Virus record (IMG/VR): IMGVR_UViG_3300045973_000529
Span: 32,001 to 96,000 of that record
Length of the DNA stretch: 64,000 nt
Source of the DNA: a virus
Direction: 5' to 3' (one strand)
Shown here: positions 3,736 through 29,041 of the stretch, in pieces
How the letters are laid out: each line of letters starts with the position of its first letter
Numbering within the stretch: position 1 is the stretch's first letter
Made by a program: the position numbers and the translations under genes
The notes under the pieces: generated by a model
What the model was told of the DNA's origin: nothing
Databases searched by the model: none
The model's input: only the letters and a program-made list of their open reading frames with translations

Positions 3736-4731
3736 ATGGACCACATCGAATCTGGTGAACTGAACAACGACTTCCGCACCTGCCTGTACCGACTGAACGA
3801 GTTCGGCATGGAAGCACATCCGCGTGGCACAACAACGAAGGAGCTGCTGAACTACAACATCAGCCTCTTCAACCCGCGGAACCGCATCGTGACCTTCCCT
3901 GACCGGAAGACGAACCTGAAGTACCTGCTCGGTGAGTTCATCTGGTACATCAGCGGTTCGAACGACCCGAAGGGCATTCTCCCGTACGCCAAGTTCTGGG
4001 ACAGCATCCGGAACTCTGGTTCGGAAGAAGGCTACGATGCCGGTACCATCAATTCGAACTACGGCAATCGCCTGTTCGGACACAGCGATCTGCCAGCCTT
4101 CTCAAAGTGGGATCACCGCGGCAATGCGACAGGTACCCTCAGTCAGTGGATCGAGACGGTGTTGTTGCTGGAACGTGACAAGGACAGCCGCCAGGCGATC
4201 ATGAACATTCACGTGCCGTCTGACCGGCACGAAGGCAACAAGGACGTGCCTTGCACATTGACGCTGCACTGGTTCATTCGCGAAGACAAGCTGCATCTGA
4301 TCGTGAACATGCGCAGCAACGACGTGGTCCTGGGCTTCACGAACGACGTGTTCCAGTTCACGATGCTCCAGGAGATGATGGCCGTTCAGCTTCGTGAAAC
4401 ATACCCGAACCTCGAGCTTGGCTGCTACTACCACAACGCCGGGTCCATGCACATCTACGATCGACACTTTGCCATGGCCGAGAAGATCATCGCTGATGAG
4501 CGAGCTCTCGAGATGGCGATGGTTCCGATGGATGTGTGCAATGACACGATCCTGACTGGGCTCGTTGGTGTCGAAGCGGCCTGGCAGGCGGCTGGCGCTC
4601 CTTCAGTCTTCGACTTCGACACCATCCCGGCTTGGGACCTGTTGACACCATACTGGCAGAACCTGGTCCTGATGTGCTTTGGCGAAGATGAAGAAGCCAT
4701 GCACAAGGTGTTTGGTATCGAGGAGCACTGA
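3736..4731 (+). CDS. Thymidylate synthase-superfamily dCMP hydroxymethylase-like enzyme (T4 gp42 type specificity)
   Basis: EFIWY, INSNYG, SRQA, catalytic PCT, MRSNDVVLGFTND (Asp where ThyA has Asn, cf. T4 gp42 RSNDVVFGFRND), GSMHIY. Confidence 0.85.
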   Translation: MDHIESGELNNDFRTCLYRLNEFGMEAHPRGTTTKELLNYNISLFNPRNRIVTFPDRKTNLKYLLGEFIWYISGSNDPKGILPYAKFWDSIRNSGSEEGYDAGTINSNYGNRLFGHSDLPAFSKWDHRGNATGTLSQWIETVLLLERDKDSRQAIMNIHVPSDRHEGNKDVPCTLTLHWFIREDKLHLIVNMRSNDVVLGFTNDVFQFTMLQEMMAVQLRETYPNLELGCYYHNAGSMHIYDRHFAMAEKIIADERALEMAMVPMDVCNDTILTGLVGVEAAWQAAGAPSVFDFDTIPAWDLLTPYWQNLVLMCFGEDEEAMHKVFGIEEH

Positions 4732-8221: not shown

Positions 8222-8520
8222 TGGCCGGTAAGATCATCTCATCTCGGCCAGGCAGCGAGGCCGTTGATCTTGAACTGAACTCGCTGTCAATCGCTGAGCT
8301 GCAGTTGATCGGTGCGTATTTGTGGGTCACACGCCTTGGGCGAGGCGTGACCCCGTATCGGGACGCCGCGTTCACTCTGATGACTAAGATCAACAATCTG
8401 ATGGGTGACGACTTTCTTGAGCATGCAGCGATCGATGTCGACATGGTCGTTGACATCATCGATTCGAACGGGGCGGTGACCCGATCCGTTGGACAACACT
8501 TCGTGGAGATTGACCTATGA
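8221..8520 (+). CDS. Hypothetical protein
   Basis: Stop/start overlaps on both sides. Confidence 0.75.
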   Translation: MAGKIISSRPGSEAVDLELNSLSIAELQLIGAYLWVTRLGRGVTPYRDAAFTLMTKINNLMGDDFLEHAAIDVDMVVDIIDSNGAVTRSVGQHFVEIDL

Positions 8521-9095
8521 CAGCGAACAAGTTCATGATCGAGGGCCTTGACCGCCTTGGCAAGGATACCCTCATCAACGGTATCCAGCACAAGCTCGGG
8601 TACCATCAGGTGCTGCACTTCTCGAAGCCACAGGTGCTCGAGTGCTACCACCCGAAGGACGAGAACGACCCAACTGTCGATCGTCGTGAATCACTGCGTC
8701 GCTACCAGGAAGCGAGCTTCCGGAACATGTTCTCCATCTTCCGTGATGCGAAGTACGCGCATCTGATCGCGAACCGCGCGCACCTCGGTGAGTGCGTCTA
8801 TGCGCCACTCTATCGTGGCTACTCGGGTGACTACGTGTTCGACATGGAGCGTGCCTTCATGGTCGGCATGTATGGCCTGCGACTGGTGCTTCTCATCGAG
8901 GACTTCGAGATCGCCGAGCACTTCATCGATGATGGTGACTCGTTTGACATCACCAAGCGCCGTCTCGAGCAGGAGTACTTCATCACGGCCTATCAGAAGT
9001 CGTGCATTCCCGACAAGCGCATCGTGTGCGTCACTGATCCTGGTACTGGTGGCTTCAAGCGCCCCGACTGGATTCTGAGCGAGGTGCTGGCATGA
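8517..9095 (+). CDS. dNMP (thymidylate-kinase-like) kinase
   Basis: P-loop EGLDRLGKDT; NRAHLGECVYAPLYRGY corresponds to the DR..S..VY lid/substrate motif. Confidence 0.8.
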   Translation: MTANKFMIEGLDRLGKDTLINGIQHKLGYHQVLHFSKPQVLECYHPKDENDPTVDRRESLRRYQEASFRNMFSIFRDAKYAHLIANRAHLGECVYAPLYRGYSGDYVFDMERAFMVGMYGLRLVLLIEDFEIAEHFIDDGDSFDITKRRLEQEYFITAYQKSCIPDKRIVCVTDPGTGGFKRPDWILSEVLA

Positions 9096-10319: not shown

Positions 10320-10456
10320 ACCCTCTGCACGAGCTCGAGAAGGCCATGGCTATGGTCTTCGCTGCTGACCCAGGTTGGTGGTGGATGCTGTGTCTAATCC
10401 CGATGGCTGCTCTGGTGGCAGCCATCATCGTTGAGAACTTCTGGAACGACAAATGA
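10316..10456 (+). CDS. Small membrane protein (46 aa, GTG start)
   Basis: Not in the track; GTGA/ATGA overlaps; one TM-like segment. Confidence 0.65.
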   Translation: MNPLHELEKAMAMVFAADPGWWWMLCLIPMAALVAAIIVENFWNDK

Positions 10457-11577
10457 AGATTGCAGTAATCAAGTTGGGTGGTCGCATCACCTGGAACACG
10501 GACGGAGCAGTTGCTCCAGGTGAAGCCGTTTCGATCTGCAAGGCCCTGTCTCGCGGTGGGGCTGAGGTGCATGTCTTCACGAAGATCCTGTCAAAGGATG
10601 TACTGCATCCCAGCCTCATGTGGCACAACATCGCTGAAGCCGATCAGGCGGATCTTGATGCGCTCGACAAGCTGGTGGTGATCAACGGGAACGTGAACTT
10701 CTTCGGCGGTGCCGAGGATCCCGAGCAGATCCTGAACTACTCGATCATCAACAACTTCCAGGGCACAGTCGTGTACGTGATGTGCGACCCCGAGCTGCCA
10801 CTGCTGCAGATCTGGCCGAACGTGTCGAAGAAGCCATGGGGCGTGAACTACCGCGAGAAGGATCTGAACATCGTGCGCAAGGACATCCGTGTTCTGTCGC
10901 AGCCGTTCAATCTGGAAGCGATGAAGAAGCACTGGAAGAAGGGTGCCGTTCCGGTCGCCGAGTTCTTCCACTTCCCGATGGAGCGCTTCCCGCTGCTGAA
11001 TGAGTGGCTGAAGCCGATGGAAGAACCGAAGGTGGACTTGCTGTACGGCGGTACACCTCGCGGTGGTCGTCGGATCCCCAATCTGTTCAAGTGGTACTGG
11101 AACCTGCCGAAGGACATCAGCGTCGAGATCTTCGGGTCCATCGATGCTGACGACTTCTCCAAGCACCCGAAGGTCGGCATGACGGCGTTGATGGACAAGA
11201 ACGTTCGCCCGCCCGAGTTCACTGGCAAGGTCAAGTATGATCAGGTTCTTCCGAAGATGAACACCGGTCTGGCGCATCTCGTCACTGGTGACGGGTCGTA
11301 CGAAGAGCTCGACATCATTCCACAGCGCACGATGGAGAACATCGCGGCTGGAAACGTCGTGTTCGTCGATGCGAACATGGACAAGGCTCGCCGCATCTAC
11401 CCGAAGGGCACGTTCGCGCACGAGTTCCTGTACGTCGCCAGTCAAGAAGAGCTCGTCGAGCGGCTGCGGTACGTGAAGGACGATGAGATGCTGCGACAAG
11501 ACGTGCTGCAGTCGCAGTGTTTTGCCCAGGACTTCGCACCTGATGAGTTCTGTCGTTCGCTGGTGGAGGTGCTGTGA
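10453..11577 (+). CDS. DNA glycosyltransferase, T4 beta-glucosyltransferase (GT-B, GT63) homologue
   Basis: Colinear with T4 BGT as recalled: MKIAVI, VINGNVNFFGG, CDPELP (catalytic Asp), WPNVSKKPW, EFFHFPME, YGGTPRGGRR, PEFTGK, GDGSY, QRTME. Confidence 0.88.
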   Translation: MKIAVIKLGGRITWNTDGAVAPGEAVSICKALSRGGAEVHVFTKILSKDVLHPSLMWHNIAEADQADLDALDKLVVINGNVNFFGGAEDPEQILNYSIINNFQGTVVYVMCDPELPLLQIWPNVSKKPWGVNYREKDLNIVRKDIRVLSQPFNLEAMKKHWKKGAVPVAEFFHFPMERFPLLNEWLKPMEEPKVDLLYGGTPRGGRRIPNLFKWYWNLPKDISVEIFGSIDADDFSKHPKVGMTALMDKNVRPPEFTGKVKYDQVLPKMNTGLAHLVTGDGSYEELDIIPQRTMENIAAGNVVFVDANMDKARRIYPKGTFAHEFLYVASQEELVERLRYVKDDEMLRQDVLQSQCFAQDFAPDEFCRSLVEVL

Positions 11578-11834
11578 AGATGACCTACGCTGACGACAAG
11601 GTCGAGTGCCAGCACGTTCGCACAATGCGTGTGAACGCCAAAGCAGATGATCGCCAATACCACGTCGTGTCGCATCTCGAAGTTGAGCGAGACGGCTACG
11701 CCCCGTACCTCAAGGGCATCTGTCACGGTGACTACGTGGAGCTGACGCTCTGCCTTGACTGCGGCAAGGTGATTTCCCGCGAGTTCCCCATCGGTGACGA
11801 AGAATTGCGCGAGGCTTTTGGCATCGAGGAATAA
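11574..11834 (+). CDS. Hypothetical protein (CLDC motif)
   Basis: GTGA overlap; ends before a terminator. Confidence 0.7.
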   Translation: MKMTYADDKVECQHVRTMRVNAKADDRQYHVVSHLEVERDGYAPYLKGICHGDYVELTLCLDCGKVISREFPIGDEELREAFGIEE

Positions 11835-11850
11835 AGCCGTGCGGCTTTTT
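11833..11850 (+). terminator. Intrinsic terminator AAAGCC-GTGC-GGCTTT-TT
   Basis: Stem-loop plus U tract at the operon end. Confidence 0.7.
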
Positions 11851-11873: not shown

Positions 11874-11902
11874 TTGCCTATCGTTTCTGCGCTAGGTACA
11901 AT
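11874..11902 (+). promoter_or_regulatory. Sigma70-like promoter TTGCCT-N17-TACAAT (TGTAAC at 11909-11914)
   Basis: Canonical spacing upstream of the kinase gene. Confidence 0.7.
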
Positions 11903-11924
11903 GGCACCTGTAACAAGGACACCC

Positions 11925-12614
11925 ATGTTCAAACGACCAACTCTCGTCTCCATCACAGCACCCACTTGCGCTGGCAAGAACTACCTCGCTGAGGTGCTGT
12001 TCGCAAATGGCTTCAATCGGCTGGTGAGCACCACTGACCGTGCACCTCGGGCCGGTGAAATCGAAGGGGTGCACTACTTCTTCATCACCACTGAGCAAAG
12101 CAAGCTGAAGGAACAGTACGATCTGTTCGCTGAATTGATCACGTACAACGGCGTTCGGTATGGCGTCACGAAGGAAGAGATGGAGCGCAAGACTGCGGTC
12201 GGACTGCCACCACCCGTCGTGATTCTCGAACCGCAGGGTGTGTTCGAGTACCGCAAGTACTGCCAGGCGAACGGCATCGACATGTTCCGCATCTTCATTG
12301 ACACGGCCGAAAGCGTGCGCCTTGCTCGCCTCGCGAAGCGTGGCGCTGCTGACGTCATTGCGGCGCTGAAGAACGTGACTTTTGATCACGCGCCAGCTGA
12401 GGGCGAAGCTGATGCCGTTGCTCTCGAAGCCGTGGCGAACGTCATGAAGGTGAACAACAAGCGCGTCATGGCGATCATTGAGCAGGAGCGGACCTGGGAC
12501 ACAGCTCACCTCTGGCACTCAATCGTCGATGGTGAAGACACGGATGTGGCACTTGCGCAGATCAAGGCCGACATCGAATACCGGAACAGCCACCCATTCG
12601 ACTTCAACGCATGA
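11925..12614 (+). CDS. Guanylate kinase-like nucleotide kinase
   Basis: APTCAGKN, VSTTDRAPRAGEIEGVHYFF, YNGVRYG; start at ATG 11925 with SD aagga. Confidence 0.85.
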   Translation: MFKRPTLVSITAPTCAGKNYLAEVLFANGFNRLVSTTDRAPRAGEIEGVHYFFITTEQSKLKEQYDLFAELITYNGVRYGVTKEEMERKTAVGLPPPVVILEPQGVFEYRKYCQANGIDMFRIFIDTAESVRLARLAKRGAADVIAALKNVTFDHAPAEGEADAVALEAVANVMKVNNKRVMAIIEQERTWDTAHLWHSIVDGEDTDVALAQIKADIEYRNSHPFDFNA

Positions 12615-13096
12615 GAGTCATCACCGCTCCTGATCCAGTGCCGATGCGCGATGCGCTTGGGACCGAGGTCTTCCTTGCTGGCTCGATCGAGCAGGGCAAG
12701 GCGCGCGACTGGCAGCCAGAGGTCTGTGCCGCGCTCGTGCCGTTCAATGCGCTCGTGTTCAATCCTCGGCGCTTGGTCTGGGACCCGACCTGGGATCAAG
12801 ACGTCTCGAACACAGAACTCGTGACCCAAGTGAACTGGGAGCTCGATCTGATTGACCGAGCTGAGATCGTGTTCTTCTACTTCCAAGCTGGAACCTTGTC
12901 GCCAATCTCGTTCCTCGAGTTCGGCATGCAGGTGCGCAATCGCCGCAAAGACATCGTTGTGGTTTGTGAAGCCGGGTTCTGGCGGCAGGCGAACATCCAA
13001 ATCACTGCTGCCCGAAACAACGTGCCAGTCGCTCTGACCCTTGAAGAAGGCATCGAGAAGCTGGTCAAGCTTGTGAAACAACGGAGTCTTCCATGA
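12611..13096 (+). CDS. Nucleoside 2-deoxyribosyltransferase-like / nucleotide N-glycosidase
   Basis: VFLAGSI, FNPRR, QVNWELDLIDRA, SPISFLEFG. Confidence 0.8.
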   Translation: MRVITAPDPVPMRDALGTEVFLAGSIEQGKARDWQPEVCAALVPFNALVFNPRRLVWDPTWDQDVSNTELVTQVNWELDLIDRAEIVFFYFQAGTLSPISFLEFGMQVRNRRKDIVVVCEAGFWRQANIQITAARNNVPVALTLEEGIEKLVKLVKQRSLP

Positions 13097-15471: not shown

Positions 15472-15555
15472 ATGTTCACTCATCTTCTCCAAACCCGCAC
15501 CCAGCGCTGTCCGCACGGGGTGTCCCATCTGAACCGCTGCCTGAGGTGCGACTGA
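15472..15555 (+). CDS. 27-aa Cys/His microprotein (RCPHGVSHLNRCLRCD)
   Basis: SD gagg; its TGA overlaps ATG 15555 (TGATG). Confidence 0.5.
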   Translation: MFTHLLQTRTQRCPHGVSHLNRCLRCD

Positions 15556-17096
15556 TGCCTGAAATCTCACGCTGGGAGAGAACTCCCAACACGACCATGA
15601 AGGTCTTCTCCAAGCTGTTCGTCGGCGTTCGTGACGGCGGTGCTGCGCATGTTCCGCTTGGGTTCGCAACTCCGTACGAGGAGAACGCCGCGGGTCGCAA
15701 GCGCCAGGAGACCGTGGTGAACTGGCTCGGCGGCACCAGTCGTATCGTAGTCGATCCCAAGACTGGGTTGTACGAGCAAGACGACAAGGGTCGATACGTC
15801 TACGAGGAGTTCGTTCCGGACACGCGCATCATCGACAACGAACCCTGTCCCGGTTTCAAGATCACGGACGATGTGAAACGGGTGTACTGGGGCGGTGGCA
15901 ATGTCGTCTGGCGCGTTGAAGACCCGCGTGGTTACGAGCTCGAGATCCAGTCCCAGAACTTGATGGCGCTGATCCAGTCGTGCGGCATCCTCGAGGGCGG
16001 TGAAATCCCAGGTCGCTGCGTCTGGGGCCGCTCAAGTGGCGACAACATTCTGCTGCACGAGACCAGCGACGAGTACAAAGCTGCCTTCAAGGCCGCCGAG
16101 ACCCTCAAGGCGCCGAAGAAACTCGGCAAGAAGGATCGTCGTGTCGGTGGCCTGTACACCCGAGTCGACGGCTCCCTCGGCATCTATCTCGGCATCGTGC
16201 ACGTCACGGTGATGAACTACCCGGCACAAGATGGTGCACTCGCGCTTGCCCGAAACTGGGATGCTTCAGAGACGGACTGGTTCAAGGCACCTGGTATGCT
16301 TCAGCCGGTCGCGGTGTCCACCTCCAACTACCCGGTGATGTCCAGCGTCGAGTACGAAGCAGTGCTGGACATCACCTCGGTGCTGGATGACAAGGACCGC
16401 CCGACGCCTGGTGTCACGATGAAGCTCTACAAGCAGGCACCGCTGGTCGCTGATGAAGGCGAGACGTACGATCTGGCCATCACCAACGAGTACCTGCGGG
16501 ACCTGCAGTGGACGTTCGCCAGCTCGAACACCTTCTGCGCCCGGATCCTGGCAGTGACGACGTCTCCGATCAAGAATCCGCTGGTGGTCGCCGTGCCCTG
16601 GGCGGCGACGAAGTACGACGCCAAACTGACACAGTTGGAGAGGTACGTCGCCCAGAACTGCACTCGCGAGATCACCTACAAGGACGAAGGCACGTTCCGT
16701 GCTCGTTGGCCAGCGACTCAGATCCTGGGCTATCAACACACTGATGTGCTCATCGTTCCAGAGCTTGGCCCGATGTCCGACATCGAGCACATTGGCGAGG
16801 ATCGTCAGTACATCACCCGTGGCGTGGCAGCGGCGCCTGATTCATTGACGGTGGCGCTGCCATGCATGCTCGGTGCCGGGTACTTCATCCATCGTGGCGC
16901 TGAAGATAGCCGGCACGCCATGCAAGTGCGCTCGTACATGTACTCGCGGTACTCCTACCCAGCCAGCCGCGAAGTCAAGGCGTACGTGCTGCCGAAGTTC
17001 TCAACCGCGGACGAGTTCATCGACTGGTTCAAGGCGCAGTACAATGATGGAAACCTCTCCACGATCTCGGTCGTGGAGGACTCCCGCTCAACCTGA
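15555..17096 (+). CDS. Large hypothetical phage protein
   Basis: Long ORF; N-terminal PLGFATPY...WRVEDPRG.ELEI block of a kind seen in large-phage hypotheticals. Confidence 0.8.
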   Translation: MPEISRWERTPNTTMKVFSKLFVGVRDGGAAHVPLGFATPYEENAAGRKRQETVVNWLGGTSRIVVDPKTGLYEQDDKGRYVYEEFVPDTRIIDNEPCPGFKITDDVKRVYWGGGNVVWRVEDPRGYELEIQSQNLMALIQSCGILEGGEIPGRCVWGRSSGDNILLHETSDEYKAAFKAAETLKAPKKLGKKDRRVGGLYTRVDGSLGIYLGIVHVTVMNYPAQDGALALARNWDASETDWFKAPGMLQPVAVSTSNYPVMSSVEYEAVLDITSVLDDKDRPTPGVTMKLYKQAPLVADEGETYDLAITNEYLRDLQWTFASSNTFCARILAVTTSPIKNPLVVAVPWAATKYDAKLTQLERYVAQNCTREITYKDEGTFRARWPATQILGYQHTDVLIVPELGPMSDIEHIGEDRQYITRGVAAAPDSLTVALPCMLGAGYFIHRGAEDSRHAMQVRSYMYSRYSYPASREVKAYVLPKFSTADEFIDWFKAQYNDGNLSTISVVEDSRST

Positions 17097-17103
17097 GTAT
17101 GCC

Positions 17104-17178
17104 ATGAAACTCGACTCCATCTGGTTCGTGATCCTCATCGTGTCGATCATTGCCCTCTTCTTCATTCCGCACCTGTGA
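17104..17178 (+). CDS. 24-aa single-TM microprotein
   Basis: MKLDSIWFVILIVSIIALFFIPHL fills the intergenic gap. Confidence 0.6.
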   Translation: MKLDSIWFVILIVSIIALFFIPHL

Positions 17179-17185
17179 GACCCCC

Positions 17186-17653
17186 ATGCGCTTCTACTCC
17201 TTCGTGAACGCTCTGTACCTCAACCCCATTCAGTACGGCATCCAGACGGCGCACTGCGTCTCCGAGATGGCCGTCGACGTTGCTCGCACTTCGCTGAATG
17301 CGGTCTTCTACGACTGGGCCGAGAACCACAAGACGATCATCATCTGCAATGGCGGCAATGTCGCCATGCTCGAGGACCTGTACACACAGCTCATCGATCC
17401 GACAGATGCATTTGGTCTGCCCCTCGTGAAGTTCTACGAGGACGAGCAGTCGCTGAACGGGGCGCTGACCTCGGTGGCGCTCATCGTGCCGGCGAAGTTC
17501 TACGACGCGAAGTTCGTGCCGGATCCGACGTCACCGCATGAACTGTCCGGGGTGTACCAGTACATCGACCCCGATGGCCGCACGACACGGTACTCGATCG
17601 ACACTCCTGAGTTCCAGTTCATTCAGCTGCTCAAGTCCTTCAGGCTGGCATGA
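17186..17653 (+). CDS. Peptidyl-tRNA hydrolase 2 (PTH2)-like protein
   Basis: GIQTAH, W....KTIIICNGG, FYEDEQSLNGALTSVA pattern. Confidence 0.7.
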   Translation: MRFYSFVNALYLNPIQYGIQTAHCVSEMAVDVARTSLNAVFYDWAENHKTIIICNGGNVAMLEDLYTQLIDPTDAFGLPLVKFYEDEQSLNGALTSVALIVPAKFYDAKFVPDPTSPHELSGVYQYIDPDGRTTRYSIDTPEFQFIQLLKSFRLA

Positions 17654-17886
17654 CTCCGCAACTGCCACCAAACCCGATGACCATCACGCCACCCGTGAAG
17701 ATGATGCTCACGGCGGACGGTGTGCTCGCGATGTTCCAAGGCCGCAGACTGGATGCCTCGCTCTTCGCCGATGTGAGGGCCGAACTCCAGAACCTGCGGG
17801 ACTGGGACAACTACTTCCGTACTACCGATTCGCTGCGTGAGGGTGCCAAGCGTGCGCTCCATCGCATTCTTGATCAGGAGCCTTGA
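17650..17886 (+). CDS. Hypothetical protein
   Basis: ATGA overlap. Confidence 0.7.
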   Translation: MTPQLPPNPMTITPPVKMMLTADGVLAMFQGRRLDASLFADVRAELQNLRDWDNYFRTTDSLREGAKRALHRILDQEP

Positions 17887-18326
17887 TGTACAAGAACCCA
17901 ACCCCAGTCGCAGTGGCCCTCATCCGTGTCGGTGACGCCGACATCAAGCTCATCGCTGGACGCCGAAGCATCGAGCCGTTCATCGGCGGACTCGCGTTTC
18001 CTGGCGGGTACGTGAACGAGGGCGAAAGCGCCGAGGTGGCCGTTGCTCGCGAAGTCTACGAGGAGATCGGCATGGTCACCGAGCCAGGGCACTGGCGGCC
18101 AATGCTGACTCGTGTCACGCCTGACAACAAGCTCCTGATCTTCATGCGACACATCTTCACGCTGACGACTGCCCAGTACGTCGAGAACGTGCGAAGCCTC
18201 TTCATCGTCGCCAACAACTTCACGCCGAACACTGAAGTCTCGGAGCTGGTGCTGGTTGACACCGGCGACACCCTGTGCTTCCCCTTGCACCAGGAACTTC
18301 TCGATCGTAAGCCTCTATGGGAGTGA
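17883..18326 (+). CDS. NUDIX hydrolase
   Basis: Nudix box PGGYVNEGESAEVAVAREVYEEIG. Confidence 0.92.
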   Translation: MMYKNPTPVAVALIRVGDADIKLIAGRRSIEPFIGGLAFPGGYVNEGESAEVAVAREVYEEIGMVTEPGHWRPMLTRVTPDNKLLIFMRHIFTLTTAQYVENVRSLFIVANNFTPNTEVSELVLVDTGDTLCFPLHQELLDRKPLWE

Positions 18327-18595: not shown

Positions 18596-18621
18596 CTATG
18601 CATACCCACCAAGGAGCCAGC

Positions 18622-19251
18622 ATGGACAATCACCTCGCCGTTCAATGTATCGATCGCCAGATCGCTGCCATCTCCCGCCTGCACGCCGTGATCAACACGA
18701 ACGAGTACCACTCAATCCTCAGCGCCGTGACTGCGGTTGCGAAGGATGGGTACAAGCGCCGTGTCATGATCGCAGGGGTCGGCAAGAACAGCAACATCGC
18801 CTCCAAGATCAGCGAGACGATGGCCAGTCTCGGCATCCCCTCGTTCTACCTGAACGTCAGCCACTGCGGTCACGGTGACTTCGGTTTCATCGGCCACGAG
18901 GACCTCATCATCCACATCAGCCGCTCGGGCACGACACGCGAAATGGTCGAGGCGATGAGCCACATCAAGAAGATCCGTCCACAGGTCGTGCAGGTCCTGA
19001 TCCACTGCAAGCCGAACAAGCCAGTGAACAACGATGCCGACATCGAGCTCTTCATCGGCGCAGTTGCTGAAGGCGACGAGTTCGAGCTCGCGCCGACCAC
19101 CTCCACAACCGCGTTGCTCTGTACCCTCGACACGATCTCGGTACAGGTCTCGCACGCCATCGGCTTCAAGCGCCTCGACTTCCTGAAGTTCCACCCGGAT
19201 GGCGCACTCGGTGCGATGCTCAAGGCTGAACAAACCAAGGACACTCAATGA
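18622..19251 (+). CDS. D-arabinose 5-phosphate isomerase-like SIS-domain protein (KdsD/GutQ family, no CBS domains)
   Basis: GVGKN, HGDFG, SRSGTT, LAPTTSTT, DFLKFHPDGALG; start at ATG 18622 with SD aaggag. Confidence 0.9.
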   Translation: MDNHLAVQCIDRQIAAISRLHAVINTNEYHSILSAVTAVAKDGYKRRVMIAGVGKNSNIASKISETMASLGIPSFYLNVSHCGHGDFGFIGHEDLIIHISRSGTTREMVEAMSHIKKIRPQVVQVLIHCKPNKPVNNDADIELFIGAVAEGDEFELAPTTSTTALLCTLDTISVQVSHAIGFKRLDFLKFHPDGALGAMLKAEQTKDTQ

Positions 19252-19421: not shown

Positions 19422-19603
19422 TCTACGCAACACCAGTGACCGAGCACGGCGAGCGGTCAGTGCATCTCATCTGCACGAACGAGGAAATCGGCATCATCTC
19501 AAATGAGCTCGGTGAGCACGCATTCTATGCGCATGACACAGTGCCGCTTACACTCGACCTGCTCGAAGCTGTTGCCAACTTTCTGAGGACACTCAACGTA
19601 TGA
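19418..19603 (+). CDS. Hypothetical protein
   Basis: Coupled at both ends. Confidence 0.7.
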   Translation: MIYATPVTEHGERSVHLICTNEEIGIISNELGEHAFYAHDTVPLTLDLLEAVANFLRTLNV

Positions 19604-21264
19604 ACCTCGTCATTGTCGCTGGGGGCCTTGGCTCCCGCCTAGCCCCGCTCACAAACTTCATCCCTAAGTTCCTCGTGAACATTGGGAAGGAGACCGGGTT
19701 CGTGAAGATGTTGGAATACTGGCGTGAGTACCAGCCCGAGTCGATCACTGTGATCGTCCACAGCCGGTACAAGGGCTTGGTGCAAGCGTACTTCGATCTG
19801 TATTTCAAGAACGATCCACTGATGAAGACATGGTCGGATGACGGTGAAGAAATCCGTACTCCGTTCATCATCAAGACGGTCGACGAAGCGAACGGCTCGG
19901 CGCACGCGATCATGACGACTTGCGGTGATCATCTGAACAAGCAGCCAGTCCTGTTCACTTGGTGTGATGTGATTCCAGGCGAGTCCTTCGACATCGAGGA
20001 ACTGAACCACGGCGGCGCCTTCGCGTTCACGAACTATGACTACCCGAACAGGTACGACCTGGTTCAACCAATGGTGGCGCCGGATGCGCCAAAGCTCGGC
20101 TGGGCTGACCGTGTGCCAGCCATTCGGTCAGATGGTCGTGGTGGTCTGTTCGGCGTGTACTACGTCAGCACCTTCGAGAAGAAGCCCTTCACCGATGGTC
20201 AGGACTTCGTCGAGCTGCTTGGGCGGTACTCGCACCGTGGCTTCGTGTACGAGGTCAAGATGCCGAGCATTGTCGACTTCGGCGACATGCCAAAGCTCGA
20301 GCGTGTTCGCTCAACAGCCGATGCAGCTCGGTCCTTCAACTCGGTCAAGATGCACGGTGACCTCGTGCTCAAGAGCGCGCTGACAGCACAGGGCGAAGGT
20401 CTCATCAAGCGTGAAGTCGCTTGGTACAGCGAGCTCGATGCGATGCAATCGACTGTCCGTCGGCCGAAGCACTGGGCGAGCTCTGATGGCACGTCGTTTG
20501 TGATGTCGAAGGTCAAGGGCGTACCAGTCTGGGAACAGTGGTCGAAACTCGACGATGACGGTCGTGCAATGGTGCTGTCACGCATCTTCGAGCAGCTCGA
20601 TACGCTGCACTGCCACAAACGCGAGGTCGGTACAGTCCAAGTCCAGACCGACATTCGTGTCGAGGCGTACGACAAGCTCATTGCCAGGTACGACGAGATC
20701 AAGCCGATGATCGATGCCTTCGGCCCAGTGCAGTGGGTGAACTGCCACAAGCTCGAGTGCCTCGATCCGAAGGTCACGATCAAGCGCTTGTACGGGGAGT
20801 TGGCAAAGCAGTACAGCACGTCACTGCACAGTTTGATCCACGGTGACCTGCAGATGTCGAACACGATGATCGATCCTGACACCCTTGAGGTGACGCTGAT
20901 CGATCCACGTGGGTACTTCGGCAAGAGCACCACCTATGGTTGCGCTGATTACGACATCGCGAAGCTGTTGTACTCGCTCAGCGGCTACGATCTGTTCAAC
21001 TACTCGAAGGACTTCCATCTGATCCACAATGGGCTGGGCAGCGTTGGCGACGGGAGTCAACAGTGGTTCATCCAGTTCGACATCCCAACACCCAACACGG
21101 GCGGATGTCAGCCGATCTTCGAGCAGCGCTTCACGCGTGTTCACCAGCTCTGGTTGGCCGTGATCTGGATCGGGCTGGCGCAGTACATCAAGAACGACCC
21201 AGTGAAGTCGGTTGCGGCGCACTACCACGGTTTGGCCATGGCCGAAAGGATCCTTGCATCATGA
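19600..21264 (+). CDS. Nucleotidyltransferase fused to an APH/choline-kinase-like domain (NDP-sugar synthesis)
   Basis: AGGLGSRLAPLT..IPK, WCDVIP; C-terminal IHGDLQMSN, IDPRGYFG, YDIAK. Confidence 0.9.
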   Translation: MNLVIVAGGLGSRLAPLTNFIPKFLVNIGKETGFVKMLEYWREYQPESITVIVHSRYKGLVQAYFDLYFKNDPLMKTWSDDGEEIRTPFIIKTVDEANGSAHAIMTTCGDHLNKQPVLFTWCDVIPGESFDIEELNHGGAFAFTNYDYPNRYDLVQPMVAPDAPKLGWADRVPAIRSDGRGGLFGVYYVSTFEKKPFTDGQDFVELLGRYSHRGFVYEVKMPSIVDFGDMPKLERVRSTADAARSFNSVKMHGDLVLKSALTAQGEGLIKREVAWYSELDAMQSTVRRPKHWASSDGTSFVMSKVKGVPVWEQWSKLDDDGRAMVLSRIFEQLDTLHCHKREVGTVQVQTDIRVEAYDKLIARYDEIKPMIDAFGPVQWVNCHKLECLDPKVTIKRLYGELAKQYSTSLHSLIHGDLQMSNTMIDPDTLEVTLIDPRGYFGKSTTYGCADYDIAKLLYSLSGYDLFNYSKDFHLIHNGLGSVGDGSQQWFIQFDIPTPNTGGCQPIFEQRFTRVHQLWLAVIWIGLAQYIKNDPVKSVAAHYHGLAMAERILAS

Positions 21265-21509
21265 AACCACGTTTCCAGTTCATCGCCGACAGCGCTGCAC
21301 CAATGGTGGTGTCTGGCACCGCCACTTGGACGTACACCGTTCAGGTGCGCGGAGAGGATGTCGAGCAGCAGCTTTCAGTGCACCTTGAGAGCTTCACAGA
21401 TGCGCACCAGTTGGACGCGCTGTTGGAGCACACATTCAAGCTCGGCATTCGCGAAGGCGACTGGCGCGTCATCCGCGCCGTCGAGAACGCTATGCAGGAG
21501 TATCAGTAG
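21261..21509 (+). CDS. Hypothetical protein
   Basis: ATGA overlap; start moved to 21261. Confidence 0.7.
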   Translation: MKPRFQFIADSAAPMVVSGTATWTYTVQVRGEDVEQQLSVHLESFTDAHQLDALLEHTFKLGIREGDWRVIRAVENAMQEYQ

Positions 21510-22293
21510 CCTTCTTGATGGTGATGTCACCGAGCTCCAGAAAGTACCGGTTGATCTCCATGTCGTCATCATCAATTAGTGGATCGAGGATCACGACTTG
21601 ATTGCCACGCTGTGCAAGGTTTCGTGATCCAGGGTCGAATCGCATGTTCCCGGATAGCACCTTCTTGTTCACGTCGCCCAGTGCTGTACAGAATCCAAGG
21701 AGCTCTGGATTAAGGTGCCTGGCGTACTGAATGTATGGGGCGTCATGCCCCTTCACATCGGTCATGATCCAGATCAGCGTCTTCGCGTCTTTGCGAGGAT
21801 CACCAGTGAACTCCTGTCCCGTTTCCATCAGCGTGTTCACGGTCACATAGTTCGCCAGATCGTCTTCCTCTTCGATGACCTTAGCGATCTTTGGATCGGT
21901 GAAGAGTTTGAAGGTTCCCGTCTTGCATGGTGACAGCAACTCCATCTTCACGTAGTACACCTTGCTTGAGTCAATCGGGTCGCCATCTTCACGGTCAAAA
22001 ATCCCGAGGTCCTTGAAGAATCTAGGCAGCCGACGAATCTTCGACTTCAACTTCGGAAGATACGGGTTGTCCTGGTTCTCGAGGCAGTACTTGATGAAAG
22101 ACTCATACGCTGAGTCGTACATCCAGAACTTGAAAACCGTCGTGCCATTCGTTAGAGCAACGCCATTTGTACCGCGCCCAAGTGGCCTGAGTTTTGTACG
22201 CCCCGCGTTGAACTCAGCCTGTAGCCATTCAACGGCGCTGACTGGCGTTTTGTCCTGCAGGTGCTTGATTCCGGTCAGTTCATCAACTCTCAT
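21490..22293 (-). CDS. Protein-kinase-like fold protein, paralogue 2
   Basis: LGRGTNG, VFK, NPYLP, KMELL, DPGSRN, ILDP. Confidence 0.75.
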   Translation of the reverse strand: MRVDELTGIKHLQDKTPVSAVEWLQAEFNAGRTKLRPLGRGTNGVALTNGTTVFKFWMYDSAYESFIKYCLENQDNPYLPKLKSKIRRLPRFFKDLGIFDREDGDPIDSSKVYYVKMELLSPCKTGTFKLFTDPKIAKVIEEEDDLANYVTVNTLMETGQEFTGDPRKDAKTLIWIMTDVKGHDAPYIQYARHLNPELLGFCTALGDVNKKVLSGNMRFDPGSRNLAQRGNQVVILDPLIDDDDMEINRYFLELGDITIKKATDTPA

Positions 22294-22940
22294 GCTGGGT
22301 CACCCATTTGTCCAGTGTCGATACGCACCGTTGGGGAAGGTGCAACAGGATCAGAGAAGACAAGCTGCTTTCCGCGCAACATCACATTCCCCTTGTGCAG
22401 ATCTAGATTGTTCACACCGTACGAGAGGATGTGCTTCCACATCTCGACGAAGTACTTGTCGCCCTTGCCAAGTTTGAAGGCCTGCTTCACGGCCGAGGTG
22501 ATGACGTACATGTCAGCTGTGTCGATGCCATCGGCCAGCTGATCAATGATCTCTTCCTCGTCATCATCGCTCGCGTCCAACCCGAGGGCCTTCACGAAGG
22601 CAGCGGTGTAGACCTTCTCCGTCTTGATTGGCGTCATCTTCTGCATGAACACGATGTGGTACGTCTTGATCTTGGCGCCTGGATCAGGATTCTGGTACTC
22701 AACTTGCTCAATGATCTCTGGCACGTACGGATTGTTCTGATGCTGCAAGCACCACTGCACGTACTTGGCGAACAGCTTGTCCTTGCCGGAGTAGACCTTG
22801 GTTACCACATTATGAAACTGTGGATGCTGGAAGACCTGGGAGAACGCGCCTCCACCAAGCTTCTTGATCTTCTCTTTCGTGACGAGCCGCTTCAGGTAGT
22901 CTTCGAGCGACTCTTCACGCAGCAGTTGAGCAACTTTCAT
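22290..22940 (-). CDS. Protein-kinase-like fold protein, paralogue 1
   Basis: LGGGAFSQV, VTK, NPYVP, FMQKM, DLHKGNVM, FSDP. Confidence 0.8.
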   Translation of the reverse strand: MKVAQLLREESLEDYLKRLVTKEKIKKLGGGAFSQVFQHPQFHNVVTKVYSGKDKLFAKYVQWCLQHQNNPYVPEIIEQVEYQNPDPGAKIKTYHIVFMQKMTPIKTEKVYTAAFVKALGLDASDDDEEEIIDQLADGIDTADMYVITSAVKQAFKLGKGDKYFVEMWKHILSYGVNNLDLHKGNVMLRGKQLVFSDPVAPSPTVRIDTGQMGDPA

Positions 22941-25731: not shown

Positions 25732-26829
25732 ATGCGCATCGGTGTTCCAAAGGAAATCAAGAACCACGAGTACCGTGTCGGTCTCACCGACGCAGCCGTT
25801 CGCGAATACGTCAAGCACCGACACGAGGTTCGCGTTCAGCGAGGCGCTGGTCGTGGTGCCAACATCTCGGACGAGGACTACGTCAACGCGGGCGCCATTT
25901 TGGTCGACACGGCTGAAGAGGTCTTCGGCATGTCGCAGATGATCGTCAAGGTCAAGGAACCTCAACCCTCCGAGATCGCGCTGTTGAACAACAGCCACAT
26001 CCTGTACACGTACCTCCATCTGGCACCTGATCGCGCCCAGACCGAAGGGCTCCTGAACTCCGGTGCCGTGTGCTTCGCGTACGAGACCTTCACCCAGCCT
26101 GGTGGTGGACTGCCGCTGTTGGCACCGATGTCCGAGGTCGCTGGTCGCATGGCGACTCAGGTCGCAGCCATGTACCTCATGAAGCCACTTGGCGGCAAAG
26201 GTGTGCTGATGGGTGGTGTCCCCGGTGTTGCCCCCGCGCACGTGGTCATTCTTGGCGCTGGCGTCGTTGGTACGAATGCGCTACAGATGGCCGTCGGTCT
26301 CGGCGCCCGTGTCACGGTGCTGGATGTGAATGTCCCGCGGCTCCGTCAGCTGGACCAGATCTACGGCAATCGCATCACTGCGCTGTACTCGACTGAGCAG
26401 TCCCGTCGTACCTGCATGATGGCGGACGCTGTCATCGGCGGCATTCTGCTGCCTGGTGCAGCAGCCCCGAAGCTCGTGACGGCCGACATGGTCGAGTTCA
26501 TGCAACCTGGCTCTGTGCTCGTGGACGTCGCCATCGATCAAGGCGGTTGCTTCGAGACCAGCCACGCAACGACGCACCAGGACCCGGTGTACATGGTGAA
26601 CGATGTCGTGCACTACTGCGTCGCGAACATGCCTGGTGCGTACGCTCGAACAAGCACCTATGCGCTGAACAACGCTACGCTTCAATACGGCCTCGAGATC
26701 GCGAGCTCTGGCTGGCGCGAGGCCATCAAGAACGAGCACATCAAGGCTGGGCTGAATGTCCAACAAGGCATCCTCACCTGCCGCGGCGTCGCCGATGCTT
26801 TCCCTGATCTTTGTTTTGTGGAGATTTGA
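25732..26829 (+). CDS. ald: Alanine dehydrogenase
   Basis: MRIGVPKEIKNHEYRV, KVKEP, YLHLA, GAGVVG, VDVAIDQGGCFETS, YCVANMPGA. Confidence 0.96.
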   Translation: MRIGVPKEIKNHEYRVGLTDAAVREYVKHRHEVRVQRGAGRGANISDEDYVNAGAILVDTAEEVFGMSQMIVKVKEPQPSEIALLNNSHILYTYLHLAPDRAQTEGLLNSGAVCFAYETFTQPGGGLPLLAPMSEVAGRMATQVAAMYLMKPLGGKGVLMGGVPGVAPAHVVILGAGVVGTNALQMAVGLGARVTVLDVNVPRLRQLDQIYGNRITALYSTEQSRRTCMMADAVIGGILLPGAAAPKLVTADMVEFMQPGSVLVDVAIDQGGCFETSHATTHQDPVYMVNDVVHYCVANMPGAYARTSTYALNNATLQYGLEIASSGWREAIKNEHIKAGLNVQQGILTCRGVADAFPDLCFVEI

Positions 26830-27138: not shown

Positions 27139-29028
27139 ATGACAAAAGCAATCATTCAAACCTACCAGGTGCTCGACGAAATCGAGCACGTGCGCAAGCG
27201 CACTGGCATGTACGCAGGCTCGACTGAGCTCACCGTCGCGTTGGAGTGGGTGTACGACCCAATGTCCAAGAAGATGGTGAAACGGCAGGTGTCGTACATC
27301 CCGGCACTCGTGAAGATCTTTTCGGAGATCCTGGACAACGCGATCGACGAACACCGCCGCGCGCCCAAGGTTCTGGACACCATCAGGATCGAGTTCGATC
27401 AAGACGGCACGATCAGCGTCATGGACAACGGCCGCGGCATCCCCGTCGAAATCCACCCGCAGACGAAGAAGTACGTCGCTGAGACTGTGTTCTCCAATCT
27501 TCGCGCTGGCTCGAACTTCAACGATGCTGAGGACCAGCAACTCATCGGCACGAACGGCGTCGGCTCGACACTGACGAACATCCTCTCGACGCGGTTCCAC
27601 GTCGAATCGTGCGACGGCAAGAAGCTCCTGAAGCAGGACTTCCTGAATGGCATGCGCGAGCGGACCGAACCGAAGATCACGCCGCACACGAAGAACTACA
27701 CCAAGATCTCGTTTGCTCCGGACTACGCGTTCTTCAAGCTCCAAGGGCTCGATGCCGATCACGTGCTGAAGATGACGAAGAAGATCGCGGACGCGAGTGC
27801 CTGCAACCCAGGTGTGAAGTTCTTTGTGAACGGCGAGCGCATCAACGTCAAGGACTTTGGCGACTACATCGCGCTCTATGCTGATGAGTACGTGTACGAC
27901 GACACCGAGGACTGGAAGGTCGGGGTCTCGTTCTCTGACGGCTTCGAGCAGGTCAGCTTCGTGAACTCGGTCGAGACGTACCAGGGCGGCACGCACGTGT
28001 TCTACGTGATGGACCAAATCACCGACGCGGTGCGTGAGTACATCAAGAAGAAGCACAAGATCGAGGTCAAGCCAGCCGACATCCGTGGTCACATGCGGGT
28101 CTACATCAGCGCGAACATCAATCGCCCGAAGTTCTCGAGCCAGACCAAGGAGAACATGATCAGTCAACCAGGCACGTACAAGACAGCTTGGGCTGTGCCT
28201 GACATCATGATCAAGAAGCTCATCAAGTCGCCCATCATCCAGCAGGTGCTGGACTGGGTCGAGATGAAGGCCAAGGCGGCCGAGCTGGCAGAGTTGCGCA
28301 AGCTGAACAAGGAAGCGTCGAAGACGAATCCAAAGCGGGTTGACAAGTTCGACGACGCGGTCGAGAAGCGCAATCGCCATCTGTGTGAGTGCTACTTCAC
28401 GGAAGGTGACTCAGCTCGGAACTCGATCCAGTCAGCTCGTGGCAAGAACCAGCTCATCGGTTCCTTCAGTCTGCGCGGCAAGCCGATGAACGTGTACGAT
28501 GCCGAGATCAAGGACGTGATCGGGAACCGCGAGTTCGCGAACATCCTCGCGATCACCGGCCTGCAGCTCGGTGAGAAGGTCACGAGCGTCACTCAGCTCC
28601 GCTTCGGCAAGCTCGTGGTGCTCAGCGATCAGGACTTGGACGGGTTCCACGTCACCTCGTTGGTCCTGAGCTTCTGGGCAAAGTACTGGCCTGAGCTGTA
28701 TGAGCTTGGCGTCGTGTACCGCATGAACACGCCGTTGTACATCGCCACAACGACCAAGGGCGAGGTGTTCGAGTTCTTCACCGAAGAGGAATACCACACC
28801 TGGTCCCTCAAGGCACCGAAGCATAAGGCCGAGTACTACAAGGGACTGGGCGGCTTCGACACCGAGGTCTTCGAGCGGTTCCTGACGAATCGGGACCGGT
28901 ACCTCGTGCGCATCACAACACTCGAGGCTGCTGATCTGGCGAAGTTCGAACTGGCATTCAGCAACACAGAACAAGACGCTCGGAAGGACTGGCTCCAGGA
29001 TGTGCGATACTTCCACGGTCAAGACTGA
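27139..29028 (+). CDS. Type IIA DNA topoisomerase, ATPase/TOPRIM subunit (fused T4 gp39+gp60-like)
   Basis: EILDNAIDE, DNGRGIP, GTNGVGS, EGDSA, LRGK, DQDLDG, YYKGLG. Confidence 0.95.
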   Translation: MTKAIIQTYQVLDEIEHVRKRTGMYAGSTELTVALEWVYDPMSKKMVKRQVSYIPALVKIFSEILDNAIDEHRRAPKVLDTIRIEFDQDGTISVMDNGRGIPVEIHPQTKKYVAETVFSNLRAGSNFNDAEDQQLIGTNGVGSTLTNILSTRFHVESCDGKKLLKQDFLNGMRERTEPKITPHTKNYTKISFAPDYAFFKLQGLDADHVLKMTKKIADASACNPGVKFFVNGERINVKDFGDYIALYADEYVYDDTEDWKVGVSFSDGFEQVSFVNSVETYQGGTHVFYVMDQITDAVREYIKKKHKIEVKPADIRGHMRVYISANINRPKFSSQTKENMISQPGTYKTAWAVPDIMIKKLIKSPIIQQVLDWVEMKAKAAELAELRKLNKEASKTNPKRVDKFDDAVEKRNRHLCECYFTEGDSARNSIQSARGKNQLIGSFSLRGKPMNVYDAEIKDVIGNREFANILAITGLQLGEKVTSVTQLRFGKLVVLSDQDLDGFHVTSLVLSFWAKYWPELYELGVVYRMNTPLYIATTTKGEVFEFFTEEEYHTWSLKAPKHKAEYYKGLGGFDTEVFERFLTNRDRYLVRITTLEAADLAKFELAFSNTEQDARKDWLQDVRYFHGQD

Positions 29029-29041
29029 GGTACAATGAACT

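Follow-up and report, generated by a model that had tools for sequence, protein, structure and literature searches.

The 374-amino-acid protein described here, encoded by an uncultured jumbo phage, is a real, full-length homologue of T4 beta-glucosyltransferase (BGT), and the clade to which this phage belongs joins a T4-type 5-hydroxymethylcytosine (hmC) synthase and GT63 enzyme to an RB69-type supply of UDP-arabinose. The combination of an hmC-type synthase, a GT63 enzyme, and a UDP-arabinose pathway predicts either arabinosyl-hmC, a new hypermodified base, or a mixed decoration with glucose and arabinose. We classify the protein as a GT63 hmC-DNA glycosyltransferase, with acceptor and donor predicted from sequence and gene context. 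The window analyzed is the whole 64,000-nucleotide stretch covering positions 32,001 to 96,000 of record IMGVR_UViG_3300045973_000529, which is carried on a 190.5-kb viral contig. The gene was found as described in the initial annotation, at 10453-11577 on the plus strand, with coding-type composition (GC3 0.78, GC2 0.34).

Homology to T4 BGT is far past chance. A phmmer comparison with PDB 1bgt gave E=1.7e-38 (query residues 1-355 against T4 residues 1-327), Pfam PF09198 scored 99.2 bits against a cutoff of 27, and PHROG 7922 matched at 3.5e-55. The AlphaFold2 model is confident (pLDDT 92.7, pTM 0.89), and when it was compared with the PDB by Foldseek, ranks 1 to 6 were all T4 BGT (E of 3.6e-24 to 6.6e-20, TM of at most 0.85), with the next GT-B enzyme appearing only at 5e-9. 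Overall identity to the T4 enzyme (PDB 1bgt, 1qkj, 1j39, and 1nzd) is ~30%, the GT-B fold is the same (TM 0.77 to 0.85), and the catalytic Asp and Glu are retained together with the UDP-binding Arg, Glu, and Tyr. In the alignment, T4 Glu22 and Asp100, which we take to act in catalysis, correspond to E24 (PGE) and D112 (CDP), the latter being the predicted catalytic base. Among the residues that presumably bind UDP, Arg191 and Arg195 correspond to R203 and R207 (PRGGRR), Tyr261 to Y283 (GSY), and Arg269 and Glu272 to R292 and E295 (QRTME); these motifs all align as had been claimed from the sequence. The position of T4 Ser189, also presumed to contact UDP, is occupied by T201. Across a 24-sequence family alignment, E22, D100, R195, D258, R269, and E272 (T4 numbering) are invariant. 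The present enzyme differs from T4 BGT in several insertions, for example around residues 236-252, and its clade carries 33 private columns.

The description of the host genome as a GC-rich, non-T-even phage also holds. The window has a G+C content of 55-62%, and the enzyme finds its closest cultured relative in the Ralstonia jumbo phage RsoM2USA. The family is as small as had been supposed, with 246 clusters (50% identity) matching at E<=1e-3 among 1.84 billion representatives. A GT63 homologue in a jumbo phage is nothing new in itself: the RsoM2USA paper (PMC8504454) already gives ORF2 of that phage the BLAST-based label 'beta glucosyl transferase'. This protein (AVH84931.1) is the closest homologue from a cultured phage, at 39.5% (tblastn) or 42% (MAFFT) identity. 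Both phages have a hydroxymethylase-type thymidylate synthase (TS) and a thymidylate-kinase (Tmk)-like kinase nearby, and an unknown protein, gp11, matches the window at 15546-17096. RsoM2USA differs in lacking the arabinose-5-phosphate isomerase and AfhE, as established by a search with a positive control.

One residue had been used to propose an altered sugar pocket, namely the C-terminal Trp of T4 BGT that appeared to be replaced by Phe. The substitution itself is genuine, as T4 Trp341 aligns with F367 (DEF), a residue of the model's final helix (H363-373). In the 24-sequence alignment this position is Phe in all seven clade members and in two homologues from phages free of arabinose genes, Tyr in 12 others, and Leu in two (one divergent pair), while Trp occurs solely in the T-even enzymes. 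Since the non-T-even homologues, arabinose-negative ones included, all carry Phe or Tyr apart from the Leu pair, we reject the view that the change points to a modified sugar pocket. Judged from the alignment, the position is a conservative aromatic site of the C-terminal helix and uninformative on the donor. The suggestion of a candidate new-donor enzyme therefore loses this support and gains another in the linked UDP-arabinose genes, and glucose would suit the conserved residues just as well. Gene context favors a non-glucose donor better than the Trp-to-Phe change does.

The arabinose genes lie downstream of the BGT gene, and T4 has none like them. The first encodes an arabinose-5-phosphate isomerase (18598-19251, plus strand) with an SIS domain of the KpsF/KdsD/GutQ type, which matches phrog_5670 at 1.4e-71 and is 50% identical to the enzyme of Serratia phage LC53. 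The second (19600-21264, plus strand) encodes an AfhE-type protein in which a nucleotidyltransferase is fused to an APH-like sugar kinase, a predicted UDP-arabinose synthase with NTP_transferase and APH domains and a match to phrog_4098 at 8e-106. Isomerase and AfhE (kinase/uridylyltransferase) are the core enzymes of UDP-arabinose synthesis in the pathway as published (PMC13326640). The locus resembles the Afh systems of RB69, DLP3, LC53, and HY126 (PMC13326640) in its isomerase, in its full-length bifunctional AfhE-type enzyme, and in having a Tmk-like kinase and a TS paralogue in the neighborhood; it departs from them in that the linked transferase is a GT63 enzyme.

Among related contigs, which derive from IMG/VR metagenomes, isomerase and AfhE are present in five of five testable ones whose BGT is at least 61% identical; they are present in none of three complete outsiders with BGT (G003, G004, and RsoM2USA). 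All clade genomes examined have BGT and the two genes in one co-directional block, with BGT upstream at a distance of 7-14 kb. The three complete outsiders, free of arabinose genes, carry BGT orthologues too, accompanied there by the TS paralogue and the kinase, from which it follows that the ancestral donor must have been a host sugar. Between the outsiders and the arabinose-positive clade, BGT is 41-51% identical, no lower than the figures for core genes (window against G003: XPD helicase 48%, UvrD 44%), and there is accordingly no sign of accelerated change in BGT. A cultured phage combining BGT with AfhE was also sought; the candidate, Acinetobacter phage AB1I1M-1, has BGT and TAGT without AfhE.

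With these data in hand, UDP-glucose is the donor to which we assign about an even chance. The fuller reading, held with the same moderate confidence, is that the protein would be an inverting DNA glycosyltransferase of GT63 and GT-B fold acting on phage hmC with host UDP-glucose, and that arabinose would be added by a second enzyme. The GT63 enzyme would place the base-proximal sugar on 5-hmC of the phage's own DNA after replication. The hmC would be flipped out, Asp112 (T4 Asp100) would deprotonate its hydroxyl, and the deprotonated hydroxyl would attack C1 of a UDP-sugar gripped by T201, R203, R207, R292, and E295. The donor would be UDP-glucose from the host, the sugar nucleotide that T4 uses and that is presumed to serve the homologues of arabinose-negative relatives. 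Phage-made UDP-arabinose would be consumed by the GT4-like transferase seen in relatives or by an unrecognized one, and the outcome would be a mixed glucose/arabinose decoration of hmC. The occurrence of BGT with the same partners in arabinose-free genomes and the lack of accelerated change both support a host UDP-glucose donor.

The part played by a second enzyme is supported by a GT4-like transferase found in the near-complete relatives (G006 and G001), as the characterized phage DNA arabinosyltransferases are all structurally GT4-like (PMC13326640). As an arabinose-specific transferase, this candidate is weakened: arabinose-negative phages have homologues 43-46% identical to it, and pairwise identities do not group by arabinose status. 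No homologue of GT4-like AraT1 of LC53, the one transferase of the Afh pathway used as query, was detected in G000, G001, or G006 (tblastn at 1e-3; jackhmmer at E<=1). GT2, TAGT, AGT, and GT9 were not found in the clade, each search having a positive control, nor was PF00534 of the GT1 family found on the present contig, the only one searched, again with a positive control. An extra glycosyltransferase in one relative, G007 (L038), is private to that genome. Subtracting the genes of G003 and G004 from those shared by G006 and G001 left 48 clade-specific open reading frames, the large ones being OmpA, NMT1-like, SPFH, lectin-like, or unannotated, with no recognizable transferase among them. As Pfam misses even the known LC53 arabinosyltransferase, a transferase may still be hidden among the approximately ten unannotated clade-specific frames. 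The 516-amino-acid open reading frame at 15546-17096 was considered for this role and gained no support: it has no Pfam match, PHROGs of unknown function, and a poor Atlas model, and it is not arabinose linked, being present in RsoM2USA and G004 and undetected in G001.

Several of these observations count against UDP-glucose as the donor. The arabinose module tracks the BGT clade exactly, no transferase other than the GT63 enzyme occurs in the co-directional block bounded by the TS paralogue and the arabinose genes, and the GT4-like enzyme is not arabinose specific. The failure to find AraT1, TAGT, AGT, GT2, or GT9 points the same way. Phage-made UDP-arabinose is a possible donor, which we consider less probable than UDP-glucose. 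It is possible, though less likely than not, that the GT63 enzyme is itself the arabinosyltransferase, a scaffold retuned to UDP-arabinose whose product would be arabinosyl-5-hydroxymethylcytosine. The perfect co-occurrence, the short and co-directional linkage, and the lack of another clade-specific transferase recognizable by Pfam all favor this proposal.

A retuned scaffold might also be reflected in the clade-private substitutions, which flank donor-binding motifs. In T4 numbering, F190 is replaced by P, T, or A, S197-K198 by P-N, N260 by S, and T273 by N or C, and W271 is replaced by M or A in six of seven clade members; these changes adjoin the phosphate loop, Tyr261, and Glu272. Clade-specific columns near key residues number 7 of 28 against 3.5 expected, a marginal enrichment (P=0.046) that rests on one clade and is for those reasons inseparable from drift. 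It counts to that extent against UDP-glucose. Against arabinosyl transfer by the GT63 enzyme stand the unaltered catalytic and UDP-binding residues, the sharing of Phe at 341 and Ala at 271 with the arabinose-negative G004 (L018), and the room for a hidden transferase that Pfam would overlook. We also know of no GT63 member that uses a pentofuranose donor.

It is improbable that the arabinose genes are unconnected with DNA and serve, for example, virion or host-envelope decoration, which would leave the BGT homologue as a plain T4-like glucosyltransferase. Two features lend this idea some weight. Unlike the published pathway, the present contig contains no homologue of the AfhF-type HAD phosphatase by tblastn; the 'hydrolase' at 17150-17653, adjacent to the arabinose genes and considered as the pathway phosphatase, has a PTH2 fold and occurs in arabinose-negative genomes too. 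A clade-specific HAD protein is encoded elsewhere in G006 and G001, and its similarity to LC53 AfhF is undetectable. In addition, the GT4-like gene of the relatives lies ~80-90 kb from the DNA-modification block. On the other side, the isomerase and AfhE pair serves DNA arabinosylation in every characterized case, including the arabinosylating Serratia phage LC53 (PMC13326640), and here it sits within a block of nucleotide metabolism and replication genes. The fusion protein, moreover, has full-length matches to 369 phage records (E down to 1e-76) and matches the DNA-arabinosylation proteins of RB69, LC53, and Acinetobacter phages over 98-99% of its own length.

The acceptor is indicated by the TS paralogue upstream of BGT (3736-4731, plus strand), which carries a dCMP hydroxymethylase signature and is the predicted source of 5-hm-dCMP; T4 BGT is likewise linked to a TS paralogue of this type. 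In E. coli ThyA numbering, the catalytic Cys is kept, Leu143 is replaced by Asp, Asp169 is kept, and Asn177 is replaced by Asp. According to a diagnostic rule, empirical and drawn from one paper, D169N marks a 5-hydroxy-dCMP synthase (PMC13326640). The window's paralogue has Asp169 within the motif MRSND, as do six of six clade relatives in having Asp169, whereas the Afh systems carry D169N and the LC53 homologue, our 5-hydroxy control, reads MRSQN with Asn169. Asp169, Asp177, and Asp143 occur together in the TS paralogues of 22 of 22 BGT-linked loci, in addition to the window's own. Because Asp169 is kept, the acceptor should be 5-hmC in DNA and not the 5-hydroxycytosine of RB69-type phages, and an RB69-like 5-hydroxy-dCMP synthase is rejected on this signature. 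A canonical TS of the Asn177 type at 33207-34112 (plus strand) implies normal thymine synthesis, which makes the paralogue at 3736 an extra enzyme. Another acceptor (5-hydroxycytosine, 5-hmU, or a target other than DNA) is very improbable: the single-paper origin of the rule speaks for it, but Asp177 selects cytosine and Asp169 denotes the hydroxymethylase type throughout the linked loci, a separate canonical ThyA is present, and the residues used in T4 BGT catalysis are all kept.

Upstream of glycosylation, the proposed order of steps would begin with conversion of dCMP to 5-hm-dCMP by the TS paralogue. The Tmk-like nucleotide kinase (8517-9095, plus strand), which is a conserved neighbor of BGT among relatives and shares 43% identity with RsoM2USA gp6, is a candidate hm-dCMP kinase and could, with host enzymes, carry 5-hm-dCMP to the triphosphate, from which the polymerase would put hmC into DNA. 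A search for dCTPase (MazG, dUTPase_2) on the viral contig, which is 52% complete, found none, and full replacement of cytosine is consequently unproven.

If the GT63 enzyme itself made arabinosyl-hmC, the product would be a DNA base so far undescribed, and the enzyme would be the first of GT63 whose natural donor is a sugar other than glucose. To our knowledge, the characterized GT63 enzymes all glucosylate 5-hmC, and published phage DNA arabinosylation always starts from 5-hydroxycytosine. RB69, DLP3, and LC53 contain arabinosyl-5-hydroxycytosine, a different base from the arabinosyl-5-hydroxymethylcytosine considered here. Either a new base or a mixed decoration would widen the chemistry that phages set against restriction, CRISPR, and glycosylase defenses. 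Acceptance of a new donor could also provide a useful variant of an enzyme already employed to label 5-hmC in epigenomics. Should the enzyme use UDP-glucose only, it would be an ordinary divergent BGT, and interest would shift to a separate arabinosyltransferase.

The immediate surroundings of the gene offer further observations. A small hydrophobic open reading frame of ~36 amino acids (10347-10457, plus strand) ends in a TGA that, on reading the sequence, overlaps the BGT start codon as an ATGA junction, which suggests translational coupling of the two. Directly 3' of BGT lies a Cys-rich frame of 84 amino acids (11580-11834, plus strand), preceded by GGAGG at 11566-11570 and most likely starting at ATG 11580; it matched no family in Pfam or PHROG and is kept in two relatives (L007 and L012). 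A weak candidate terminator hairpin, AAAGCC-GTGC-GGCTTT followed by a T-run (11833-11850, plus strand), possibly marks the end of the BGT transcription unit; it is absent from the calls of a consensus terminator scan. The same nucleotide-metabolism block continues on the plus strand with a guanylate-kinase-like protein (11874-12614). A nucleoside 2-deoxyribosyltransferase-like protein (12611-13096, plus strand; PF15891) follows. A NUDIX hydrolase (17883-18326, plus strand) adjoins the arabinose genes and is syntenic in two relatives (L008 and L010).

The window brings together an hmC-type synthase, a GT63 transferase and UDP-arabinose genes, a combination undescribed in the literature searched, which predicts a hypermodification differing from both the T4 type and the RB69 type. 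The transferase, a 374-amino-acid protein encoded at 10453-11577 (+) with strongly coding-like composition (GC3 0.78, GC2 0.34), is established here as a member of GT63. It matches T4 beta-glucosyltransferase (BGT) nearly end to end (phmmer, PDB 1bgt, E=1.7e-38, query 1-355 versus T4 1-327), as well as Pfam PF09198 (99 bits, cut-off 27) and PHROG 7922 (3.5e-55), with a weaker match of Glyco_trans_1_2 to its C-terminal part. An AlphaFold2 model, made from an input alignment of 21 sequences of relatives, is confident (pLDDT 92.7, pTM 0.89), and all six of its top PDB matches are T4 BGT entries (E 3.6e-24 to 6.6e-20, TM 0.70-0.85), the next GT-B enzyme being 15 orders of magnitude weaker. The full-length homology proposed in the initial annotation is thus borne out, and the residues named there align as it stated, with E24, D112, R203/R207, Y283, R292 and E295 corresponding to T4 Glu22, Asp100, Arg191/Arg195, Tyr261, Arg269 and Glu272. 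In a 24-sequence alignment of the family, Glu22, Asp100, Arg195, Asp258, Arg269 and Glu272 (T4 numbering) are invariant.

GT63 is, as had been supposed, small but real, with 246 clusters at 50% identity matching at E<=1e-3, and 86 at <=1e-30, among 1.84 billion representatives. T-even b-gt proteins are 27-32% identical to the window BGT, and among cultured phages the closest match is ORF2 of Ralstonia phage RsoM2USA (344 kb), with 39.5% identity by tblastn and 42% in a MAFFT alignment. ORF2 was listed by BLAST as "beta glucosyl transferase," the DNA of that phage not having been examined (PMC8504454); so, taken alone, the presence of a BGT homologue in a GC-rich jumbo phage is no novelty. The source contig, of which the window covers bases 32001-96000, spans 190.5 kb and is estimated to be 52% complete (IMG/VR), the window has a G+C content of 55-62%, and no near-identical phage record was found.

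Replacement of the C-terminal Trp by Phe had been taken as the sign of an altered sugar pocket. The substitution itself stands, as T4 Trp341 aligns with F367, within the last helix of the model (H363-373), but the argument built on it does not. Phe occupies this column in 7/7 members of the clade formed by the window BGT and relatives at least 61% identical to it, and also in two homologues of phages without arabinose genes (L018, L027); the remainder have Tyr (12) or Leu (2), with Trp solely in three T-even enzymes. The column is a conserved aromatic position that says nothing on the donor. Two divergent homologues, L023 and L024, form a subgroup that retains Asp100, Glu22, Arg195, Arg269 and Glu272 but has Phe in place of Arg191, Asn in place of Tyr261 and GAN instead of the GGS/T motif. 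Altered donor binding may be more likely in this subgroup than in the window protein.

The acceptor can be approached through a divergent thymidylate synthase (TS) paralogue at 3736-4731, about 6 kb upstream of BGT and distinct from the canonical ThyA at 33207-34112. Among PDB entries it is closest to the CMP hydroxymethylase MilA (1.7e-25) and to T4 dCMP hydroxymethylase. The substitution D169N (E. coli ThyA numbering) marks phage TS homologues making 5-hydroxy-dCMP, the arabinose acceptor in RB69, DLP3 and others, and hydroxymethylases keep Asp169 (PMC13326640). Aligned with real sequences, the window paralogue carries the motifs MRSND...FTND and KDVPC, with Asp169, the cytosine-selecting Asp177 and Asp in place of Leu143, the very pattern of T4 gp42, whereas the TS of the 5-hydroxycytosine-making Serratia phage LC53 reads MRSQN in place of MRSND. 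The hydroxymethylase signature recurs in 22/22 TS paralogues adjoining BGT homologues at related loci, and on this signature the acceptor of the window BGT is very probably 5-hmC in DNA. A Tmk-like kinase (8517-9095) adjoins BGT and is kept there in relatives.

The published UDP-arabinose pathway is represented by two genes, 7-9 kb downstream of BGT. The first, at 18598-19251, encodes a KpsF/KdsD/GutQ-like arabinose-5-phosphate isomerase (phrog_5670, 1.4e-71; 50% identity to the LC53 enzyme), and the second, at 19600-21264, a fusion of nucleotidyltransferase and APH-like kinase (phrog_4098, 8e-106). Its counterpart in arabinosylating Straboviridae is the bifunctional AfhE-type protein, to which 98-99% of the fusion aligns, at E values as low as 1e-76. 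In those phages such enzymes lead, together with the HAD phosphatase AfhF, from ribulose-5-phosphate to UDP-arabinofuranose (PMC13326640); no AfhF homologue was found on the 52%-complete contig. A neighboring "hydrolase," so named by PHROG (17186-17653, +), was ruled out as a pathway member, as its model (pLDDT 92.6) has the PTH2 peptidyl-tRNA-hydrolase fold (Foldseek matches 2zv3, 1rlk, 1xty, 1q7s) and the gene is kept in arabinose-positive and arabinose-negative jumbo relatives alike. For a phage, encoding a Pth2-like enzyme is unusual. Between it and the isomerase lies a NUDIX hydrolase (17883-18326, +), syntenic in L008 and L010, which could be a dCTP-clearing enzyme or a sugar-nucleotide hydrolase; searches of the contig gave neither MazG nor a T4-type dCTPase.

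BGT relatives were identified at 29 IMG/VR loci, the six closest at 61-67% identity. Both the isomerase and AfhE genes lie downstream of BGT in synteny in three of these six (L008, L009, L010) and just past the 10-kb flank in two (L011, L012), the sixth, L007, being too short to show presence or absence. Both are missing from the complete genomes G003 (368 kb, BGT 48-51%) and G004 (345 kb, 42-45%) and from RsoM2USA, with LC53 as the positive control for the isomerase search. Presence in the testable close relatives and absence in the distant genomes mean that the arabinose genes mark exactly the clade of the window BGT.

Two readings of the donor follow. That BGT uses UDP-glucose of the host, with arabinose added by another enzyme, we put at about an even chance. 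Candidates for such an enzyme were sought in the source contig and in three near-complete genomes of the clade, G001 (94%), G006 (100%) and G007 (87%). None of GT2, TAGT, AGT or GT9 was found in these four, each search having a positive control, nor was a second GT63; GT1-family PF00534 is absent from the source contig, where it was sought, and the LC53 arabinosyltransferase has no match in the source contig, G001 or G006 by tblastn (E<=1e-3) or iterated profile search (E<=1). A GT4-like gene (Glyco_trans_1_4, ~360-380 aa) lies roughly 80-90 kb from BGT in G001, G006 and G007. It is not arabinose specific, as RsoM2USA, G004 and G003 carry homologues of it that are 43-46% identical and its identity matrix is unsorted by arabinose status, the G001 copy being nearer the outsiders than the G006 and G007 copies. 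An extra glycosyltransferase of G007 is private to that genome. Subtraction of G003 and G004 from the G006 genes common to G001 left 48 ORFs, the isomerase and AfhE among them; the larger ones are OmpA, NMT1-like, SPFH or lectin-like, or lack annotation, and none is a recognizable transferase. Pfam also misses the known arabinosyltransferase of LC53, so the clade might hold a hidden transferase. A clade-specific HAD protein (PF18143, 1.1e-15; L126:745-1362, equivalent to G006 236745-237365, and G001 ~131541) adjoins the GT4-like gene in G006 and G001, a region not on the window's contig. It could be the missing phosphatase, and its position hints at a possible role of this second locus in the sugar pathway.

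That the window BGT itself uses the phage-made UDP-arabinose is possible, if on the doubtful side. The block bounded by the TS paralogue and AfhE holds no other transferase, and 33 columns of the BGT alignment are private to the clade. Those with a T4 equivalent number 28, and 7 of them lie within 3 residues of key sites (motif-anchored: Glu22, Asp100, the Ser189-Arg195 loop, Tyr261 and Arg269-Glu272) versus 3.5 expected (P=0.046), a test in which function and descent are confounded in a single clade. Such changes, which include Phe190 to Pro/Thr/Ala, Ser197-Lys198 to Pro-Asn, Asn260 to Ser and Thr273 to Asn/Cys (T4 numbering), are suggestive at most of a donor switch. Trp271, outside the 33 columns, is Met or Ala in 6/7 members, with Ala also in arabinose-negative L018. 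The divergence of BGT from outsiders (41-51%) is like that of core genes, the window and G003 sharing 48% identity in XPD helicase and 44% in UvrD. The remaining probability falls to other readings.

Several neighboring genes complete the picture of the region. A small hydrophobic ORF (~36 aa, 10347-10457, +), whose TGA and the BGT ATG overlap as ATGA, and a Cys-rich ORF of 84 aa (11580-11834, +; most likely start ATG 11580), with a CxxC, upstream Cys/His and its own GGAGG inside the BGT 3' end, have no family match and look co-transcribed with BGT. A short GC hairpin and T-run 3' of the latter was not called as a terminator by a consensus scan. Within the modification block, a nucleoside 2-deoxyribosyltransferase-like protein (12611-13096, +; PF15891 1.1e-26, phrog_30579), kept in most clade relatives, might act on some nucleotide pool. 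A 516-aa protein (15546-17096, +) matches PHROGs 30990, 6266 and 2475, none of which has a known function, and its fold could not be assigned; its N-terminal ~230 aa are common to G004, G006, L012 and RsoM2USA gp11, which adjoins the TS paralogue of that phage. Directly after AfhE are two tandem minus-strand genes (21490-22940), the second matching phage protein-kinase PHROGs (15752, 1.6e-14); in the subtraction screen a homologue carried by G006 and G001 came out as clade specific. Finally, a full-length alanine dehydrogenase/PNT-type protein (25732-26829, +; PF01262 1.4e-80, PF05222 2.2e-43) is encoded by an auxiliary metabolic gene adjoining type II topoisomerase subunits (27139-30379).
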